The translations under genes and the position numbers were made by a program. The notes beneath the pieces are model-generated. The model was not told the DNA's origin. It was given only the letters and a program-made list of their open reading frames with translations, and searched no databases. From NCBI GenBank assembly GCA_000146465.1, contig CP001948.1: a stretch of DNA of 64,000 nt; one strand, written 5' to 3'. This document shows, one piece after another, positions 1-54,287 of this stretch; position 1 is the stretch's first letter, and every line of letters starts with the position of its first letter.

Positions 1-471
1 AGAAACTCCTCCAACTGCCCCTAACAGTTCTTCTTCCTCTTCTTATTTCTTTTCCTCTGCATCCTGTCTCTTTTGAACCATAGATCTTATCGACATCTTC
101 TTAACCCAACTACCATCATTAGTTAGGCTTCCAACCTCAAATGCCTACACTGCGAATGAAAGTTCTCTATTCCCAATAAACTCCCTAACTTTCCTTATGT
201 CTTGAGAATCCTTCTTCAGGTCGCTAAGCCTTCTTATATGTCATGCTATCGGAAATCCAATTCCTCTTTGAAGTTTTGCTTTCATTATACAATTCAATTC
301 CGTCTATAGTATTTACTCTCTTACCCTGTAGTATGAAAATGGCTTAGAATCTTTAAATTGGGGCTCTGTCTTGTTAAGGCCGAGAGATGGGAAATTATCC
401 ATAGTGTTTTATCAGCTATCTAAAATACATGTAAGGGATTTGAGGCAGTAATGTATTGTAAGACGATTTAA

Positions 472-1242
472 TTATAGGCCCTTACTCCTAGCGTACTCTC
501 CGATTTTTTCTTTAAGCTCTTTAACACTTTCGGAGATTTTTAAAACTTCGTTTACCTCCTTTCCTGTAAAAGACGGGCTATTAAAGCAGTCAACAAATAT
601 TGCAAATGCAACTTCTCCTCTCTCGATTTCATCTTTATCGTCTGAATCTAGCCCTATTTCCTTATTCTGAATCTCTATTTTCTCGATATACATAACTTCC
701 ATTCTGAAGAATTCAATTCTTATTCTGGTGCTTTTACTATTCATTCTAATGCCCTTGAGGAACATAGCTCTGGCACTTTCGATGTCTCCAACCTCAAACA
801 GCTTGAATGCACAATATATCCAAAGATCAACATCTAGTGGATTTCTTGTACAGCACTCTGCAAACACATTTTTCATTTCCCCATACATTTTCTTTCCCAT
901 GACATAAGCGGTAAACTGTGAAACTATTCTTGGGTCATTGAATCTATACAGAGCAGATCGATATAACTCCACTATTTTTTTTGATATGTTCATGTCATGG
1001 AGTGAAAACCCAACATTCTTTTTCTTTACTCTTTTGTCTCTTATTTTTTCTAATATGCACTCGCTTTTTATATAGCGCATGAAATCTAAAAGTTTTTTTT
1101 CTGGCCTTTGAAGTCGGAGCTCATACTTTTTCCTTGTCTCTACTATCTTTCTTAACTCGTGTGGGGAGAAGATTCCTCTAGTCTTGTAGTCTTCCAACTC
1201 CGATATCATTCTTTCCATGCCTAGCTGTATACTTTCTACCAT
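472..1242 (-). CDS. U3 snoRNP protein UTP6-like (HAT-repeat, SSU processome)
   Basis: N-terminus MVESIQLGMERMISELEDYKTRGIFSPHELRKIVETRKKYELRLQRPEKKLLDFMRYI follows the conserved UTP6 N-terminal domain pattern (LExxLPELEDLxxxGxFSxxEIRxIxxRRxxFEyRLqR...DFLxYIxYE). The downstream region is helical-repeat like. Confidence 0.55.
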   Translation of the reverse strand: MVESIQLGMERMISELEDYKTRGIFSPHELRKIVETRKKYELRLQRPEKKLLDFMRYIKSECILEKIRDKRVKKKNVGFSLHDMNISKKIVELYRSALYRFNDPRIVSQFTAYVMGKKMYGEMKNVFAECCTRNPLDVDLWIYCAFKLFEVGDIESARAMFLKGIRMNSKSTRIRIEFFRMEVMYIEKIEIQNKEIGLDSDDKDEIERGEVAFAIFVDCFNSPSFTGKEVNEVLKISESVKELKEKIGEYARSKGL

Positions 1243-6479: not shown

Positions 6480-7157
6480 TTGAAAATACAAGCGATCCCT
6501 TCTATGAGCGAATGCGAGTACTGTAAGTCTAGGAAGATGCTTCCTCTTAATGGAAAATACTACTGCGAGGAGTGTGAAATATACTACGTATACAAAGATG
6601 GAAGACAGCAATATTCCAATCTTCCTATTGAGGAAATAAGTCAAATATCTGTTGGAGACCATCTTTGCAAAAAATGTAGACTGAAGTACTCTGAGAAGAA
6701 GTCCATTGTGTGCACTACATTTCGTGAATACTTCAAGAAGCTTCCTTTATGTAGAAAATGTAAGCAAAACAATCAGAAATGCATAAAGAACACCTTCTTC
6801 CAAAACTTCATACTTTACAGAACTTACAGCAGGGTTTTTTCGGTCCAATCTGTTGTGTTCCACAGTATATGGCTTTATTTAATGGGAACCATGTTCCTTA
6901 GTAAGCTTATCATCACTAACTTAATTATTTACAAAAGAAAAGGACTCAAGCTTTTAGAATGTTTAATGAGCTCTATTCTCCTTATCCCTCTTGGATATTG
7001 GAGTTGGGGTACCACCGTTTTCTATTTATATTGCTTCCTTACAATGGTTTTTTCTAAAAGATGGTATTATAAGGTTCCTGTTAATCTAGATGGGCCTCCT
7101 CCAAACATTTTGAAGTATTTAGAACATCTCAACATAGGCCGAAAGAAAGACGGATAG
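6480..7157 (+). CDS. hypothetical protein with N-terminal Cys-rich (CxxC pairs) domain and C-terminal hydrophobic segments
   Basis: ORF only. It has several CxxC pairs (CEYC...CEEC...CKKC...CRKC) followed by predicted transmembrane stretches. I recognise no family, and the start is uncertain. Confidence 0.3.
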   Translation: MKIQAIPSMSECEYCKSRKMLPLNGKYYCEECEIYYVYKDGRQQYSNLPIEEISQISVGDHLCKKCRLKYSEKKSIVCTTFREYFKKLPLCRKCKQNNQKCIKNTFFQNFILYRTYSRVFSVQSVVFHSIWLYLMGTMFLSKLIITNLIIYKRKGLKLLECLMSSILLIPLGYWSWGTTVFYLYCFLTMVFSKRWYYKVPVNLDGPPPNILKYLEHLNIGRKKDG

Positions 7158-23151: not shown

Positions 23152-23223
23152 TGGTTCCACCGAGATTCGAACTCAGATTACTGGATTCAAAGTCCAGGGT
23201 GCTAACCATTACACTATGGAACC
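23152..23223 (-). tRNA. tRNA-Gln (anticodon UUG)
   Basis: Reverse complement reads GGTTCCATAGTGTAATGGTTAGCACCCTGGACTTTGAATCCAGTAATCTGAGTTCGAATCTCGGTGGAACCA. It has a 7-bp acceptor stem (GGTTCCA/TGGAACC), a D arm, an anticodon stem CTGGA/TCCAG with loop CTTTGAA (anticodon TTG), and a T arm CTGAG-TTCGAAT-CTCGG. It is near-identical to typical eukaryotic tRNA-Gln(UUG), and CCA is not encoded. Confidence 0.85.
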
Positions 23224-35631: not shown

Positions 35632-36675
35632 TTACAAAATCTGCTTGCAAGCAGAAATAGTTTCGGAATTCTCACAAGGGAAACTTTCCACATGACATTT
35701 CCGCGCGCGAATTCTTCTTCCTCCAAAAAAACGTCCATTAAGAATGTTAAAAGCGTGCCTGGCTTCATCTTCCGTGGAATAAAGGCAGTATACGGCAACT
35801 TCCTCTTTCTTATGTACTCCAAATTCTACAACATCTCCATACTTTTTCATCTCATTCTCCATTTCTTGATCAAAATCGTCATCTGCATCATTTATGTCTA
35901 TCAGGTTTCTCAAAACAACCATTTTTCCTTTGCCAAATATAGCACTTTCAATTCTCTTCTTTATCTCAAACACCTCCTTGGGAATTGCAAAGTAGTTTTT
36001 TTCTGGTAGCTCCATTTTGGTCACACAAGGCCCTATTCTTATTCTTTTTCCATAGAGAATAATCTTGTTACTGTATCCCAAAGCTCTTTTTGCATCGATC
36101 CGTCTCAGAAACTCCACATATCCATATCCTTTGTGAATAAATGAAGATCCATAGGCAAGTCTTACTTCCTTAATTTCCCCCATCTTTCCAAAGATATCTT
36201 CTAGTTGTTCCTCTTCAATATCCAGGTCTATGTTTGATATATAAACAATGACTTCATTTGGAGGCCCAAGTTCCTTTGGGATCTCCGATGGAAACGTAGA
36301 GGTTCTTCCGGCCTTTAGGGTTTTCCCATTAAAGCTTACTCCATTGATCTCCGCTATGCACAAATAAGCTGCATGTGGATTGTCGAAGTCTGCAAACACA
36401 CATTCCTTGTTTCCTATGCATGTCACAGATACTGGCCCAAAAACGCTGAGAAGATCCTGGATAGAGCTTCTGGATCCTGTAAAATTTCCTATGTACACTT
36501 TGTTAAGGAGTCTACTGTCGAACTTTGAAGCCTTGATGCCCTCGTTTGGGATAACCCATCTATTGTATTCTACTACACTTCTGTATGCTGTGTCCAGTTT
36601 CCCAAGCTCGTTCTTTTTGGTATTGGATACTTCTTCTATGTCTTGGAGGAGCTTCTCGTCCTTTACAATTATCAT
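35632..36675 (-). CDS. three-RRM splicing factor with C-terminal UHM (U2AF large subunit / PUF60-like)
   Basis: RRM blocks are KVYIGNF..., VIVYISNIDLD...HKGYGYVEF and a C-terminal UHM-type RRM MVVLRNLIDINDADDDFDQEMENEMKKYGDVVEF...ILNGRFFGGRRIRA (acidic helix plus the R-F-F-G-G-R motif). The start is set at the Met that avoids overlap with the divergent gene at 36703; the ORF runs to 36933. Confidence 0.5.
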   Translation of the reverse strand: MIIVKDEKLLQDIEEVSNTKKNELGKLDTAYRSVVEYNRWVIPNEGIKASKFDSRLLNKVYIGNFTGSRSSIQDLLSVFGPVSVTCIGNKECVFADFDNPHAAYLCIAEINGVSFNGKTLKAGRTSTFPSEIPKELGPPNEVIVYISNIDLDIEEEQLEDIFGKMGEIKEVRLAYGSSFIHKGYGYVEFLRRIDAKRALGYSNKIILYGKRIRIGPCVTKMELPEKNYFAIPKEVFEIKKRIESAIFGKGKMVVLRNLIDINDADDDFDQEMENEMKKYGDVVEFGVHKKEEVAVYCLYSTEDEARHAFNILNGRFFGGRRIRARKCHVESFPCENSETISACKQIL

Positions 36676-36702
36676 TCTGGGCCTGAGGCCGTATAGCTTT
36701 CT

Positions 36703-39066
36703 ATGAAAATGAATAAATTCAAGTTCCAACTCCTTGGCATAATGCTGAGCAACCATCAAGAAGAGTTCCTTGAGAAAATTAGATTTAAAGGCAAGGGAAA
36801 TCCTCGTCGAGCTACATGGATAAAAAGAGGAACAGAGGCAATAAAAGCGATTAACAGCATACTCAGAGCACCTACACATGACTTGGCCCTCTTTGGGTTG
36901 GAAATAGTCAAATGTCTGTATATGTACGAACATATCCTTGGGATTCCAAGATACTCATTAGACAAGGCTCTTGTAAGCCTCTGCAGTAAAGTGTTTTTAG
37001 AAGAGATTTATAATGAAATTGAAAGAAGGATCCAGTTACATCTTGAAAAGATGCTCAATAAGGAAATACACTCAATCGACGAGTGCATGAGTTACCTAAG
37101 TAGTCACAGGTCCTCACTGGATGAAATAATTGTTGGGTATCTCATGATAAGATACAGGGTGTATAAGGAATATAAAAAAGAGACATATTGCATTGTTGAA
37201 AGAGTTGATTCAAAGCTAAAAGTTAAGGCAAGGAAGGCATTCGGCTTTTTAGTTGATGGATGTAGAACTTGCTTTTTAGAGTCTAAGGTTAAAGAGCTTC
37301 TAGCTCAAAGAATACACACAGAATTTATAATTGCAAAGAGAGAAGAGATCTCCCATGACCTTACCAAAGATGAGATAGAGTACATAAGAGAAAACTATCC
37401 CCTTGTATCTTGCTTTTACAATATTCCAGAAGATATAGGTGTGCCCTATCTACGCTTAAGAAAGAGCTTTGACGTCAGATACTTTGTAGATGTTTTTTGC
37501 TGGAATGGATTTGTTGAAAGCATCGAGACCTTCTACGGAGCACACGAGGAAAAGCTCCTCGACACAGCTTTTTTAAGGGGTCTGTGCTTCCAGATGTGCA
37601 TAGATAGAAAGTACAATCTGAACTTGATGGAGAAGTTTATAGATAGATCTACATCTTTTGAGAAAGCATTTATGGAAGGCTATAGAAAAGTGGTGTTCCA
37701 GGAATACAAAACTGCCAAGGAAAGATTCAGAATGGTTCTAGAAATTATCAGGGACTTAAGACTAGGCATTGTTCCGGAGATTCAACTCTGGGTGTACGAT
37801 CTTCTTTCCATGTGCCACATGTTTTGTGGGGAATACTTCGAAAGTGTGTTCTATCTGAACAAGGGAATTGAACTGTCTCACAGGTATCAGCTAGGATTCG
37901 TTTCTTTGCATTTTCTCAATTGCAAATTCATAGTGGAGAGAATAGGAGGCATACAAGGGCCCTTCCCAAAAATTAGACTGGACCTGGAAGAAACAATCAA
38001 CTCTCGGTTTGTTATTGAAAGCGAGCAGAAAGCGATAAATAACAGGATTCTTACAAACCTTCTGCTCAAAGATGACATGAGTAATCTCAGAGAAATGAGA
38101 ACTCTCGAAATATTTGCAATGTTCAAGCCTTCCACTCTTTATAAAGACATAGAAAGAACACTAAGCCGTTTAAAAAAGTTCACGGTTGTATCTCTATATT
38201 CGATAGATGGATGCCTGTTTATCAATGACTTTAGAGGATTTGTAAAGGTAGATAGGGGGTTTGGAGACACTAAGGTAAAGATGAATGAGATATTGGCCAA
38301 ATCCAGAAACGTTCTCAAGGGAAATGTAACTAGCGACCTAGACAAGGCAAGATGGTGGATGGAAAGAATGGAACTGGACACACAATTGGGAGAAATCCTC
38401 CGCAGCGTAGGAGATAAGTTTGATAGGCTCTCAATTGGAAAGGATGTAATTCTGGTTTTGGATGAAACCACAACAGAGTTTCCATTTGAATCAATCCCTG
38501 CTTTTAAGGGTAAAAGTGTGTACAGAGTTCCCTCTCTAGAATACTTAGAGGATGTTCCTGGACTTGAGATAGATAGGAAGTCATTTTTCTACCTTTTGGA
38601 TCCGGAAAACAACCTCTTCAAGACTCGGGAAAGAATATCCGGCTTTCTTAGATCTTCGGGAATAAAAAATGGAATCACAGGAAGGCCTCCTTCAGACCTA
38701 GAATGCAAAGAAGCCGATGGTTACGACGTACTGCTTTATTTTGGACACGGAAGCGGACTTAAATATCTGAAGGTTTCTGGAGAGGGGAAGATTATGTTTT
38801 TATTTGGATGTAACAGTGCCAAGCTTTTGTGTGTAGAGAATTATAAGAGAAATGGGTCCATTCTAAAACATCTTAGGAGGAATTCAATGATAGTCGGATG
38901 TCTCTGGGAAGTCACCGATAAAGACATCGACAATTTTAGTGTCAAGGTTATTGAGAGCCTGATAAACGGGTCTACTAATATTGGCGAGGTAGTTTCTAGG
39001 TTTCGTGATGAATTTAAGCTGAGGTATCTGAACGGTGCCTCTGTAGTTATTTATGGCTTTCGCTAA
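36703..39066 (+). CDS. separase (peptidase C50), strongly shortened (787 aa)
   Basis: C-terminal catalytic domain DVLLYFGHGSGLKYL (catalytic His in GHG), FLFGCNSAKL (catalytic Cys) and MIVGCLWEVTDKDIDNFS match the separase C50 signature (vLlYfGHGsG / LfGCsS / lvGnLWdVTDkDiDrF). Confidence 0.6.
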   Translation: MKMNKFKFQLLGIMLSNHQEEFLEKIRFKGKGNPRRATWIKRGTEAIKAINSILRAPTHDLALFGLEIVKCLYMYEHILGIPRYSLDKALVSLCSKVFLEEIYNEIERRIQLHLEKMLNKEIHSIDECMSYLSSHRSSLDEIIVGYLMIRYRVYKEYKKETYCIVERVDSKLKVKARKAFGFLVDGCRTCFLESKVKELLAQRIHTEFIIAKREEISHDLTKDEIEYIRENYPLVSCFYNIPEDIGVPYLRLRKSFDVRYFVDVFCWNGFVESIETFYGAHEEKLLDTAFLRGLCFQMCIDRKYNLNLMEKFIDRSTSFEKAFMEGYRKVVFQEYKTAKERFRMVLEIIRDLRLGIVPEIQLWVYDLLSMCHMFCGEYFESVFYLNKGIELSHRYQLGFVSLHFLNCKFIVERIGGIQGPFPKIRLDLEETINSRFVIESEQKAINNRILTNLLLKDDMSNLREMRTLEIFAMFKPSTLYKDIERTLSRLKKFTVVSLYSIDGCLFINDFRGFVKVDRGFGDTKVKMNEILAKSRNVLKGNVTSDLDKARWWMERMELDTQLGEILRSVGDKFDRLSIGKDVILVLDETTTEFPFESIPAFKGKSVYRVPSLEYLEDVPGLEIDRKSFFYLLDPENNLFKTRERISGFLRSSGIKNGITGRPPSDLECKEADGYDVLLYFGHGSGLKYLKVSGEGKIMFLFGCNSAKLLCVENYKRNGSILKHLRRNSMIVGCLWEVTDKDIDNFSVKVIESLINGSTNIGEVVSRFRDEFKLRYLNGASVVIYGFR

Positions 39067-39442
39067 AGCTCAAACCCTCAAGGAAGCTATTAATTCTTGC
39101 AGTAAAGAACCCAAGATGTCTTGGTATCATATTCAGGACAAAAGGCTTAAGCTGGCGATTAAGGCCAAGCCAAATGCTAGATGCACTCAAGTAAGAGAAA
39201 TAACAGATACGGAGATTGTTGTAAATGTAAGGTGATCAAATTAATTTTAGGTAAATGCACCACCGACAGATAATAAAGCTAATAAGGAGCTGGTAGAGTT
39301 TGTTGGTAAGATGCTTAAAGTCCCGAAGTCTTCGGTTAAGGTAGTGGTAGGTGCTAGTAGTACCAATAAAACTATTGTGGTGAGCGCTTGGGAAGGAGAT
39401 GAAGAGAATCTGAAAGCAGCTGTGAATAAAATGCTAGAGTAG
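39053..39442 (+). CDS. DUF167 / YggU (UPF0235) family protein, encoded in two exons: join(39053..39226, 39251..39442); an alternative Met start is at 39116
   Basis: Exon 1 ends ...LKLAIKAKPNARCTQVREITDTEIVVNV. Exon 2 begins VNAPPTDNKANKELVEFVGKMLKVPKSSVKVVVGASSTNKTIVVS. Together they align with E. coli YggU ([72 protein letters not shown]). Without splicing, the ORF stops at 39235 before the APPxDGxAN core. Confidence 0.6.
39227..39250 (+). other. spliceosomal intron, 24 nt (gtaaggtgatcaaattaattttag), GT-AG, phase 0
   Basis: The 5' site GTAAGG follows codon AAT. TTAAT lies 5 nt upstream of the terminal TTTTAG. Removal keeps the frame and restores the family's conserved motif. Confidence 0.6.
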
Positions 39443-39484: not shown

Positions 39485-40303
39485 TCAATCGTCTGGCCTT
39501 CCATGATGCTTTACAATAAATGGATGATTTAAAGCTTCGGCAAGCCTCATTCTGTCACTGGGATTTAACATAAGAAGCTTAGAGATAAAGTCCGAGGCAT
39601 TGGAGCTGATTGTTTCTGGAATCGAGTATTTCAATGAGTTGATTTTCTTGTAAGCCTCTCTCATGTTCCTGTTCTTGCTTTCAAATGGTGTTTTCCCTAT
39701 GAGGAACTCGTATGTTAAGATTCCCAAGCACCACAAGTCTATTCCAGAGTCGTGTATGCTGTTGTTGACCATTTCTGGCGCAAGATACTCCATTGTACCG
39801 CAGAAGGTCATTCTCCTCTTATCGGCATTGTAGACCGCCCATCCAAAGTCTCCTATCTTGAGGAGGTTATCCGATCCAAGAAGTAAGTTCTCTGGCTTTA
39901 TGTCTCTGTGTATCACATTGCATTCCTTCATGTACATCAGAGCCAGTATCACCTGTCTTATGTATAGGGAGGCCTCTTTCTCTCCAAACTTGCCTCCCTT
40001 CTCGCTCAGGAACTTGAAGAACTCCCCCTTTCCTGCATACTCTAATATCAGGTATATGTTATCCTTGTCGTGGAAGTGTCCATACATCCTAAGGATGTTC
40101 GGATGCTTCAGATTGGAATGTATTTCTATTTCTCTCCGGATTTGCCTTGCTGTCTCAGCCGTTTGGATCTCCTTAATTGGAATGATTTTCAAAGCAACTA
40201 TAAACCCTTTTTCTTTCTCTCTTGCAAGCCACACCTGCCCGAACTTTCCACGCCCAAGTAACCTTCCTATTTCAAACTTATCCAGAGTCCAATATTCTAC
40301 CAT
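39485..40303 (-). CDS. Aurora-family Ser/Thr protein kinase (Ipl1/Aurora orthologue)
   Basis: Colinear with Aurora kinases: [66 protein letters not shown] and LIGKTPFE (Aurora: [21 protein letters not shown]...[26 protein letters not shown]). Confidence 0.85.
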   Translation of the reverse strand: [272 protein letters not shown]

Positions 40304-53924: not shown

Positions 53925-54287
53925 CTACTGGAGAGCCTCTTTAATTTTCTCCTCTAGACGCAAGGACTCGGATCCCTTTGGCAAGTAAATGGTGCATGCA
54001 GCAATTGGCCTATGGATTCCGCATGCTACACCCAGGGCACTCTTGGAAGGAATGTGAACAAAGGGAACACCCTTATCTTCACATATTATGGGCAGAAAGG
54101 CCGTTATTTCCTGCGGCTCTGCATCACATGCTATGACAACAAGGAGGGCGGTCCCCTTATTAAGACACTTTGTCGACTCATTTATGCCTTTTCTAACGTT
54201 CTTTGATCTTGTGGCTCCTTGGATTAGCTTCAGTATGTTCTGTACTTTTGAGTCGGAGACCGGAGAGTATGTCTGGGTCATTGTCAT
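53925..54287 (-). CDS. SNU13: L7Ae-family RNA-binding protein Snu13 (15.5K; U4 snRNP and box C/D snoRNP component)
   Basis: Colinear with SNU13/NHP2L1 over the full length: KNVRKGINESTKCLNKGTALLVVIACDAEPQEITAFLPIICEDKGVPFVHIPSKSALGVACGIHRPIAAC aligns with [70 protein letters not shown]. Confidence 0.8.
   Translation of the reverse strand: MTMTQTYSPVSDSKVQNILKLIQGATRSKNVRKGINESTKCLNKGTALLVVIACDAEPQEITAFLPIICEDKGVPFVHIPSKSALGVACGIHRPIAACTIYLPKGSESLRLEEKIKEALQ

Follow-up and report, generated by a model that had tools for sequence, protein, structure and literature searches.

The microsporidian Encephalitozoon cuniculi reportedly has a set of 34 to 37 short spliceosomal introns, described in work by Katinka in 2001, Lee et al. 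in 2010, and Grisdale et al. in 2013. Grisdale et al. confirmed all of the E. cuniculi introns annotated at the time plus two from a four-species comparison, with 37 confirmed (PMC3629993). E. cuniculi introns measure 22 to 76 nucleotides (nt) and have strict donor, branch, and AG motifs (PMC3629993); 20 introns that are neither ribosomal nor 5′ biased were added in 2010 (PMC6349667). Here we analyzed a stretch of 64,000 nt of Encephalitozoon intestinalis DNA (GenBank assembly GCA_000146465.1, contig CP001948.1; hereafter the window), in which a gene of the YggU/DUF167 family is interrupted by stop codons. With a probability that we put at about 0.95, the plus-strand segment from 39116 to 39442 is, as judged from sequence, the E. 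intestinalis gene for a 100-residue YggU/DUF167 (UPF0235) protein, split after codon 37 by a 24-nt U2-type GT-AG spliceosomal intron of the very short, strongly constrained Encephalitozoon type.

The open reading frame (ORF) that begins at 39053 terminates at a TGA (39233 to 39235) after ...EIVVNVR, and two further in-frame stops, TAA at 39242 to 39244 and TAG at 39248 to 39250, follow within the same 24 nt (39227..39250, plus strand; GTAAGGTGATCAAATTAATTTTAG), which thus contain three. The same frame is open again from 39251 (VNAPPTDNKANKEL...), and cutting out the 24 nt fuses both halves in frame, just as an initial annotation made from the sequence had proposed. GTAA opens both the intron and exon 2, so that an identical mRNA would result if the cuts moved by +1 to +4 nt; among these equivalent cuts at 39227 to 39254, only the unshifted one has GT-AG borders (GT at 39227 to 39228, AG at 39249 to 39250). 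A longer GTAAAT repeat, which both closes exon 1 and opens exon 2, is confined to E. intestinalis and Encephalitozoon romaleae and is therefore probably a coincidence.

The family assignment put forward in the initial annotation, including the homology of the second half to the family core and the likeness to bacterial YggU, held up in profile searches and in sequence matches to solved structures. In its 121-residue version, the spliced product matches Pfam PF02594 (gathering cutoff, 30.9 bits) in a single stretch over profile positions 2 to 75 of 76 (8.3e-22, 77.6 bits), and the 100-residue version scores 78.2 bits over the same positions. Exon 1 alone matches positions 2 to 32 (E = 0.054) and exon 2 alone positions 32 to 75 (5.7e-15); since one match ends where the other starts, the halves abut in PF02594 with no residues lost or gained. 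The spliced product also aligns through the junction with the solved Escherichia coli YggU structure 1N91 (7e-8) and matches the solved Pyrococcus furiosus PF1765, 9UNT (8e-6). We know of no biochemical function for any member of the YggU/DUF167 family.

Translation most likely starts at 39116 and not at 39053, giving a product of 100 residues in place of the 121 initially proposed. The final 14 nt of the separase ORF, which stops at 39064 to 39066, include the ATG at 39053, and the 21-residue N-terminal extension that this ATG would add is not conserved in orthologues; moreover, Encephalitozoon hellem, E. romaleae, and the assembly DRR353006 have in-frame stops 5′ of the conserved ATG, excluding a longer N terminus in those three taxa. 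The start at 39053 was rejected on these three grounds, and the 100-residue length agrees with the public annotation. Encephalitozoon genes have CCC/GGG-like signals adjoining their transcription start sites (PMC5499648), and a CCC motif stands just 5′ of the conserved start here (Table 1).

Further evidence comes from relatives. The orthologous region, lying between the separase and Aurora kinase genes, was retrieved from additional relatives with the kinase as the entry point, bringing the set to eight taxa from at least two genera: E. intestinalis, E. hellem, E. cuniculi, E. romaleae, Ordospora pajunii, SRR21023573, DRR353006, and a Biomphalaria pfeifferi contig. The split gene is also present in O. 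pajunii (locus L007), in the Logan assemblies SRR21023573 (L009) and DRR353006 (L013), and on a microsporidian contig within the B. pfeifferi assembly (L014). For every one of the eight taxa, a single GTA[AG]G...AG excision, and no other, recovers a reading frame of 90 or more codons with the family motif, and the intron lies 111 nt past the conserved ATG, after codon 37, in all eight; the comparison with orthologues suggested by the initial annotation hence came out in favor of a conserved position. Left unspliced, each of the eight sequences runs into an early stop or changes frame. Intron length is 24 nt in five taxa, 22 nt in two, and 23 nt in one, and because the 22- and 23-nt inserts shift the frame, only removal at the RNA level gives the conserved protein in those three. 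All eight spliced products align gap-free through the junction, and the five that were searched (that of E. intestinalis and those of the four relatives added here) match PF02594 over its full length (6e-19 to 1e-22).

Within the introns, all eight taxa share 5′ GTA.G and 3′ TAA.TT.AG without change and with constant spacing from the two ends, whereas the nucleotides in between vary. Of the 24 intron positions, 19 do not change among the four Encephalitozoon species, versus 4 of 19 four-fold degenerate sites of the same gene (Fisher p = 1.8e-4). Between Encephalitozoon species, the proportion of nonsynonymous differences (pN) in both exons is 0.07 to 0.21 versus 0.46 to 0.78 for synonymous differences (pS); on this measure, both exons are under purifying selection.

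Table 1. Features of the split YggU/DUF167 gene in the window, and the orthologous introns
Feature	Coordinates	Strand	Basis or sequence
CCC motif just 5′ of the conserved start; likely transcription-start signal	39110..39112	+	CCC 0 to 5 nt upstream of ATG in 7 of 8 orthologous loci; function putative
Exon 1, 111 nt, codons 1-37, MSWYHIQ...EIVVN	39116..39226	+	equals annotated 100-residue protein P0001/AHL30123.1 from residue 1; 111 nt in 8 of 8 taxa
Intron, 24-nt GT-AG spliceosomal, phase 0, 3 in-frame stops	39227..39250	+	sequence; position common to 8 taxa; annotated span 327 nt
5′ splice site GTAAGG	39227..39232	+	GTA.G invariant in 8 taxa
Branch-point hexamer TAATTT (TAAYTT class), presumed branch A 39244	39242..39247	+	TAA.TT.AG invariant, spacing from 3′ end fixed, 8 taxa
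3′ splice site AG	39249..39250	+	invariant in 8 taxa
Exon 2, codons 38-100 plus TAG stop, APPxDNKANKEL family core	39251..39442	+	PF02594 match; pN far below pS
Intron, E. intestinalis			GTAAGGTGATCAAATTAATTTTAG
Intron, E. hellem			GTAAGGTGATTGAATTAATTTTAG
Intron, E. cuniculi			GTAAGGTGATTGTGTTAATTTTAG
Intron, E. romaleae			GTAAGGTGATTGGATTAACTTTAG
Intron, O. pajunii			GTAAGCAAAATTGAATAATTTCAG
Intron, SRR21023573			GTAAGTCCATCATTAATTTTAG
Intron, DRR353006			GTAGGTGTGTTTCTAATTTTAG
Intron, B. pfeifferi contig			GTAAGTGAGCTGACTAATTTCAG

The conserved nucleotides are those expected of spliceosomal signals. The Encephalitozoon U1 small nuclear RNA (snRNA) carries the recognition motif ACUUACC (PMC5499648), to which positions +1 to +5 of the donor GTAAGG are complementary. 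The E. cuniculi donor consensus is (GT)AAGT, a match at three or more of the four positions being the yardstick (PMC2483917), and GTAAGG fits it at three of four, a strong donor by that standard and in line with its initial description as close to GTAAGT. The orthologues have GTAAGG (three), GTAAGC (one), GTAAGT (two), and GTAGGT (one). Toward the 3′ end, TAAYTT is equidistant from AG in all eight taxa and takes the CTAATTT form in two, as expected from E. cuniculi, where TAAYTT, often as CTAAYTT, occurs in all 13 accepted introns analyzed (PMC2483917); in the window, the AG follows TAATTT two nucleotides on. By analogy with CTAAY, the presumed branch nucleotide is A39244, 5 nt before the terminal AG. 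The initial annotation had TTAAT, as a plausible branch region, 5 nt before AG; TTAAT (39241 to 39245) is 3 nt from AG, and it is the presumed branch A that is 5 nt away. With a length inside the published 22- to 76-nt range here and in the orthologues, GT-AG borders, a frame disrupted if the insert is retained, and a position kept in orthologous genes, the intron has, at the level of sequence, every hallmark of the Encephalitozoon short-intron class.

We infer the following course of expression, in which splicing itself is supported by the comparative evidence and the snRNA contacts, branch nucleotide, transcription start, and splicing efficiency are likewise predicted. Transcription would begin near the CCC motif at 39110 to 39112, and the reduced microsporidian spliceosome would recognize GUAAGG via U1 snRNA and later U6, with U2 pairing with the UAAUUU branch region only ~5 nt from AG. 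Excision would fuse ...EIVVN to VNAPPTDNKANKEL..., producing one complete domain with the junction peptide ...EIVVNVNAPPTDNK..., while on an unspliced transcript translation would end after two intron codons, for a fragment of just 39 residues. In E. cuniculi, short introns are spliced in a mean of <20% of transcripts (PMC3629993, PMC6349667), and by analogy a large share of the YggU-gene transcripts may be unspliced.

Several observations weigh against this interpretation. The donor has G, not T, at +6. The loose pattern GTAAG-N5-20-TTAAT-N0-6-AG occurs twice in the 64-kb window against 1.03 expected by chance, and at this chance frequency the motif by itself proves nothing, so the case rests on homology and conservation. 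An AlphaFold model of the spliced protein, built from a five-sequence alignment, has a predicted local distance difference test score (pLDDT) of 53.5, which is low confidence and does not independently confirm the fold. Finally, ECU07_0355, the E. cuniculi orthologue, has no entry in the expression table that accompanies the RNA sequencing (RNA-seq) study of E. cuniculi by Grisdale et al.

That same loose pattern, expected about once per 64 kb, would suit a pseudogene in which a 24-nt stop-bearing insertion had killed a YggU gene and the splice-like motifs were coincidental, as would an insert length that is a multiple of three, such as an in-frame insertion could have. We nevertheless consider a pseudogene very improbable: eight taxa among which synonymous sites are near saturation (pS of 0.46 to 0.78) share the codon boundary at which the insert lies, yet pN is far below pS in both halves, full-length Pfam matches are retained, and length varies (22, 23, 24) while GTA.G and TAA.TT.AG stay invariant, which is unlike the evolution of a dead insertion. 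The interruption could also be dealt with at the level of translation, by stop readthrough, ribosomal bypass, or frameshifting, or the halves could be made as separate peptides that assemble. The in-frame 24-nt insert of five taxa would accommodate this, but in E. intestinalis a ribosome would have to read through three consecutive in-frame stops, and the 22- and 23-nt inserts of three taxa would each need a different recoding event. Separate peptides are opposed by the lack of a conserved start codon in exon 2, whose first in-frame ATG, at 39311, lies downstream of the essential APPxDNKANKEL motif. The conserved nucleotides are, moreover, exactly the spliceosomal signals known for Encephalitozoon, leaving translational handling less probable still than a pseudogene. 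An assembly or sequencing artifact in the window has a negligible likelihood. The 6.5 to 6.8 kb around the gene are 100% identical in GCA_051312775.1 and in the independent Logan assembly of ERR13302946, and this identity in two other assemblies indicates that the interruption is not a sequencing error; the same structure recurs, besides, in the seven other taxa. A gene split by a short spliceosomal intron remains the reading that these observations favor.

Both the gene and its intron are in fact already known: GenBank has them for E. intestinalis and for three sister species, public entries that the initial annotation missed, and this class of intron is well described, including by RNA-seq in E. 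cuniculi. The initial likening of the intron to microsporidian ones was apt, the window being from E. intestinalis. AHL30123.1, a "YggU-family protein" of 100 residues from E. intestinalis ATCC 50506, is 100% identical to the 121-residue spliced product from residue 22 on, and the same protein is annotated in further E. intestinalis assemblies (three KAL accessions). The annotated gene spans 327 nt, i.e., 303 coding plus 24, and a span of this size for a 100-residue product means that the public annotation already includes exactly this intron. Annotated orthologues of 100 residues, each with a 327-nt span, are EHEL_070320 (E. hellem), ECU07_0355 (E. cuniculi), and EROM_070290 (E. romaleae). 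According to the genome papers, introns were entered by hand in Encephalitozoon annotations (PMC10158259, PMC12697097). A literature search for ECU07_0355 found the term in no paper, and none of the proteins recovered in searches with the spliced product derived from a spliced transcript assembly.

One E. cuniculi record departs from the others. In GCA_027571585.1 (locus L004, 1501 to 1827), UYI27192.1 reads ..VVNVSAPP.., whereas ..VVNISAPP.. is what results from GT-AG splicing of this DNA and what the GB-M1 record ECU07_0355 has; the UYI27192.1 junction appears to be off GT-AG by 3 nt, onto noncanonical borders.

The newly found loci raised observations of their own. In O. pajunii, the split DUF167 gene (L007, 4817 to 5303, minus strand; identical in L008) has the 24-nt intron GTAAGCAAAATTGAATAATTTCAG and a spliced product matching PF02594 at 1e-22. 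The NCBI gene list of GCA_021821965.1 has no gene between Aurora kinase and separase, and a prokaryote-style caller gave two ORFs, of 56 and 42 residues, in the JGI copy of the locus; this is probably a missed gene. The Aurora kinases of L009, L013, and L014 are 78 to 83% identical to that of the window, and L009 and L013 share its gene order (SMC / RNase_T / GPP34 / kinase / YggU / separase / RRM). L014 has the same order, with no Pfam match on record for the gene in the GPP34 position and part of that in the separase position. It corresponds to contig JASAOG010000480.1, annotated as snail, and the B. pfeifferi assembly thus evidently includes a contig from a microsporidian contaminant or parasite. 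Walking along synteny via Aurora kinase to more remote taxa, Vairimorpha bombi (L011) and a JGI contig (L010), found synteny broken and no DUF167 gene adjacent.

Beyond the eight-taxon clade, a profile search of 1.84 billion representatives retrieved 7661 family members. The nearest relatives are two metagenomic proteins, P0133 (JGI/IMG, 18.5-kb contig) and P0154 (JGI/IMG, 1.2-kb contig), which have uninterrupted ORFs over the intron position and fall beside the clade in a rough neighbor-joining tree; bacterial and kickxellomycete fungal members come after them with similar scores. P0133 and P0154 could be microsporidians without this intron. If they are, the intron either arose anew in a genome that was otherwise losing introns or was kept for a purpose, possibly that of throttling expression, with inefficient splicing leaving mostly truncated transcripts. 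Gain or selective retention of the intron within the Encephalitozoon/Ordospora lineage nonetheless seems unlikely to us. A metagenome scan with the eight-protein alignment returned 50 loci, of which none exceeded 48% identity to the query or represented a new microsporidian locus. For 48 of them, i.e., all but L056 and L057, the match spans the junction as a single segment. The DNA of L057 alone was read, and it has a continuous ORF in what we take to be a prokaryote-like setting, beside a zinc-ribbon ORF; L056 shows the same partial match (residues 36 to 79).

Three motif-plus-ORF scans of the 64-kb window turned up no other credible intron, what they returned being junk or shifts of frame into long ORFs already present, in keeping with the initial claim that this was the sole convincing one. 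Alternative borders within the gene were rejected: donor 39191 (GTAAGA) removes conserved domain residues and is not conserved in E. cuniculi, and the downstream acceptors 39278, 39286, and 39289 also remove conserved domain residues. Elsewhere, the second match to the loose pattern (458 to 477, plus strand; GTAAGACGATTTAATTATAG) is attributed to chance, since it coincides with the 3′ terminus of a gene on the minus strand (472 to 1242) and no plus-strand ORF is present, and a candidate at 6901 to 6970 was discarded as lying within a continuous ORF.

The splicing-related genes initially reported in the window are indeed there: a Snu13-like L7Ae-family protein (53925 to 54287, minus strand), with human and yeast Snu13 as its best PDB matches, and a PUF60-like protein with RRMs and a C-terminal UHM (35632 to 36933, minus strand). 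An Rfam scan of the window matched no snRNA or small nucleolar RNA model; a tRNA (23152 to 23223, minus strand) is the only Rfam family at gathering score. Of the genes flanking YggU, the Aurora-type kinase (39485 to 40303, minus strand) is encoded identically on chromosome-scale E. intestinalis contigs, and the separase ORF (36703 to 39066, plus strand) has 787 residues from its first ATG and 774 in the public assembly, which uses another start.

The value of these results is confirmatory, and small as discovery: a reading of sequence alone recovered one of the few dozen introns (<50 per genome) in the smallest known nuclear genomes, and the eight-taxon comparison shows which intron positions are constrained, namely, GTA.G ... 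TAA.TT.AG.

Set against described systems, the locus does not differ from AHL30123.1, which has the same gene, intron, protein, and span. The introns of ECU07_0355, EHEL_070320, and EROM_070290 share the position after codon 37, the 24-nt length, the 5′ end GTAAGGTGAT, and the 3′ end TTAAYTTTAG, and they differ from the window intron at 4 to 5 interior positions. The resemblance extends to the E. cuniculi short-intron set as a whole, with GT-AG borders, a length of 22 to 76 nt, a strict GTAAGT-like donor, TAAYTT a few nucleotides from AG, and an ORF broken upon retention; G at donor position +6 is the difference. Lying in the middle of a non-ribosomal gene, the intron is like those added in 2010 and unlike the original ribosomal-protein set, in which the intron directly follows the ATG. 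Retention across species despite genome reduction is likewise a trait of the ~76-nt intron family in microsporidian poly(A)-binding and S23 genes (Whelan et al. 2018, PMC6349667). The latter introns, however, are ~3 times longer, with hyper-extended pairing between branch point and U2, an internal conserved stem-loop, and ~80% splicing (PMC6349667), whereas an intron of 24 nt is too short for any internal structure. Extremely short introns also occur in other compacted eukaryotic genomes, those of chlorarachniophyte nucleomorphs and of mikrocytids (16 to 17 nt in the latter; PMC10245619). Introns of the Bigelowiella natans nucleomorph and of Paramecium have weak donors and no branch-point signature (PMC2483917). 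Chlorarachniophyte nucleomorph and mikrocytid genomes are, moreover, intron rich, whereas in Encephalitozoon introns are few and their donor and branch signals strong, as in the window.

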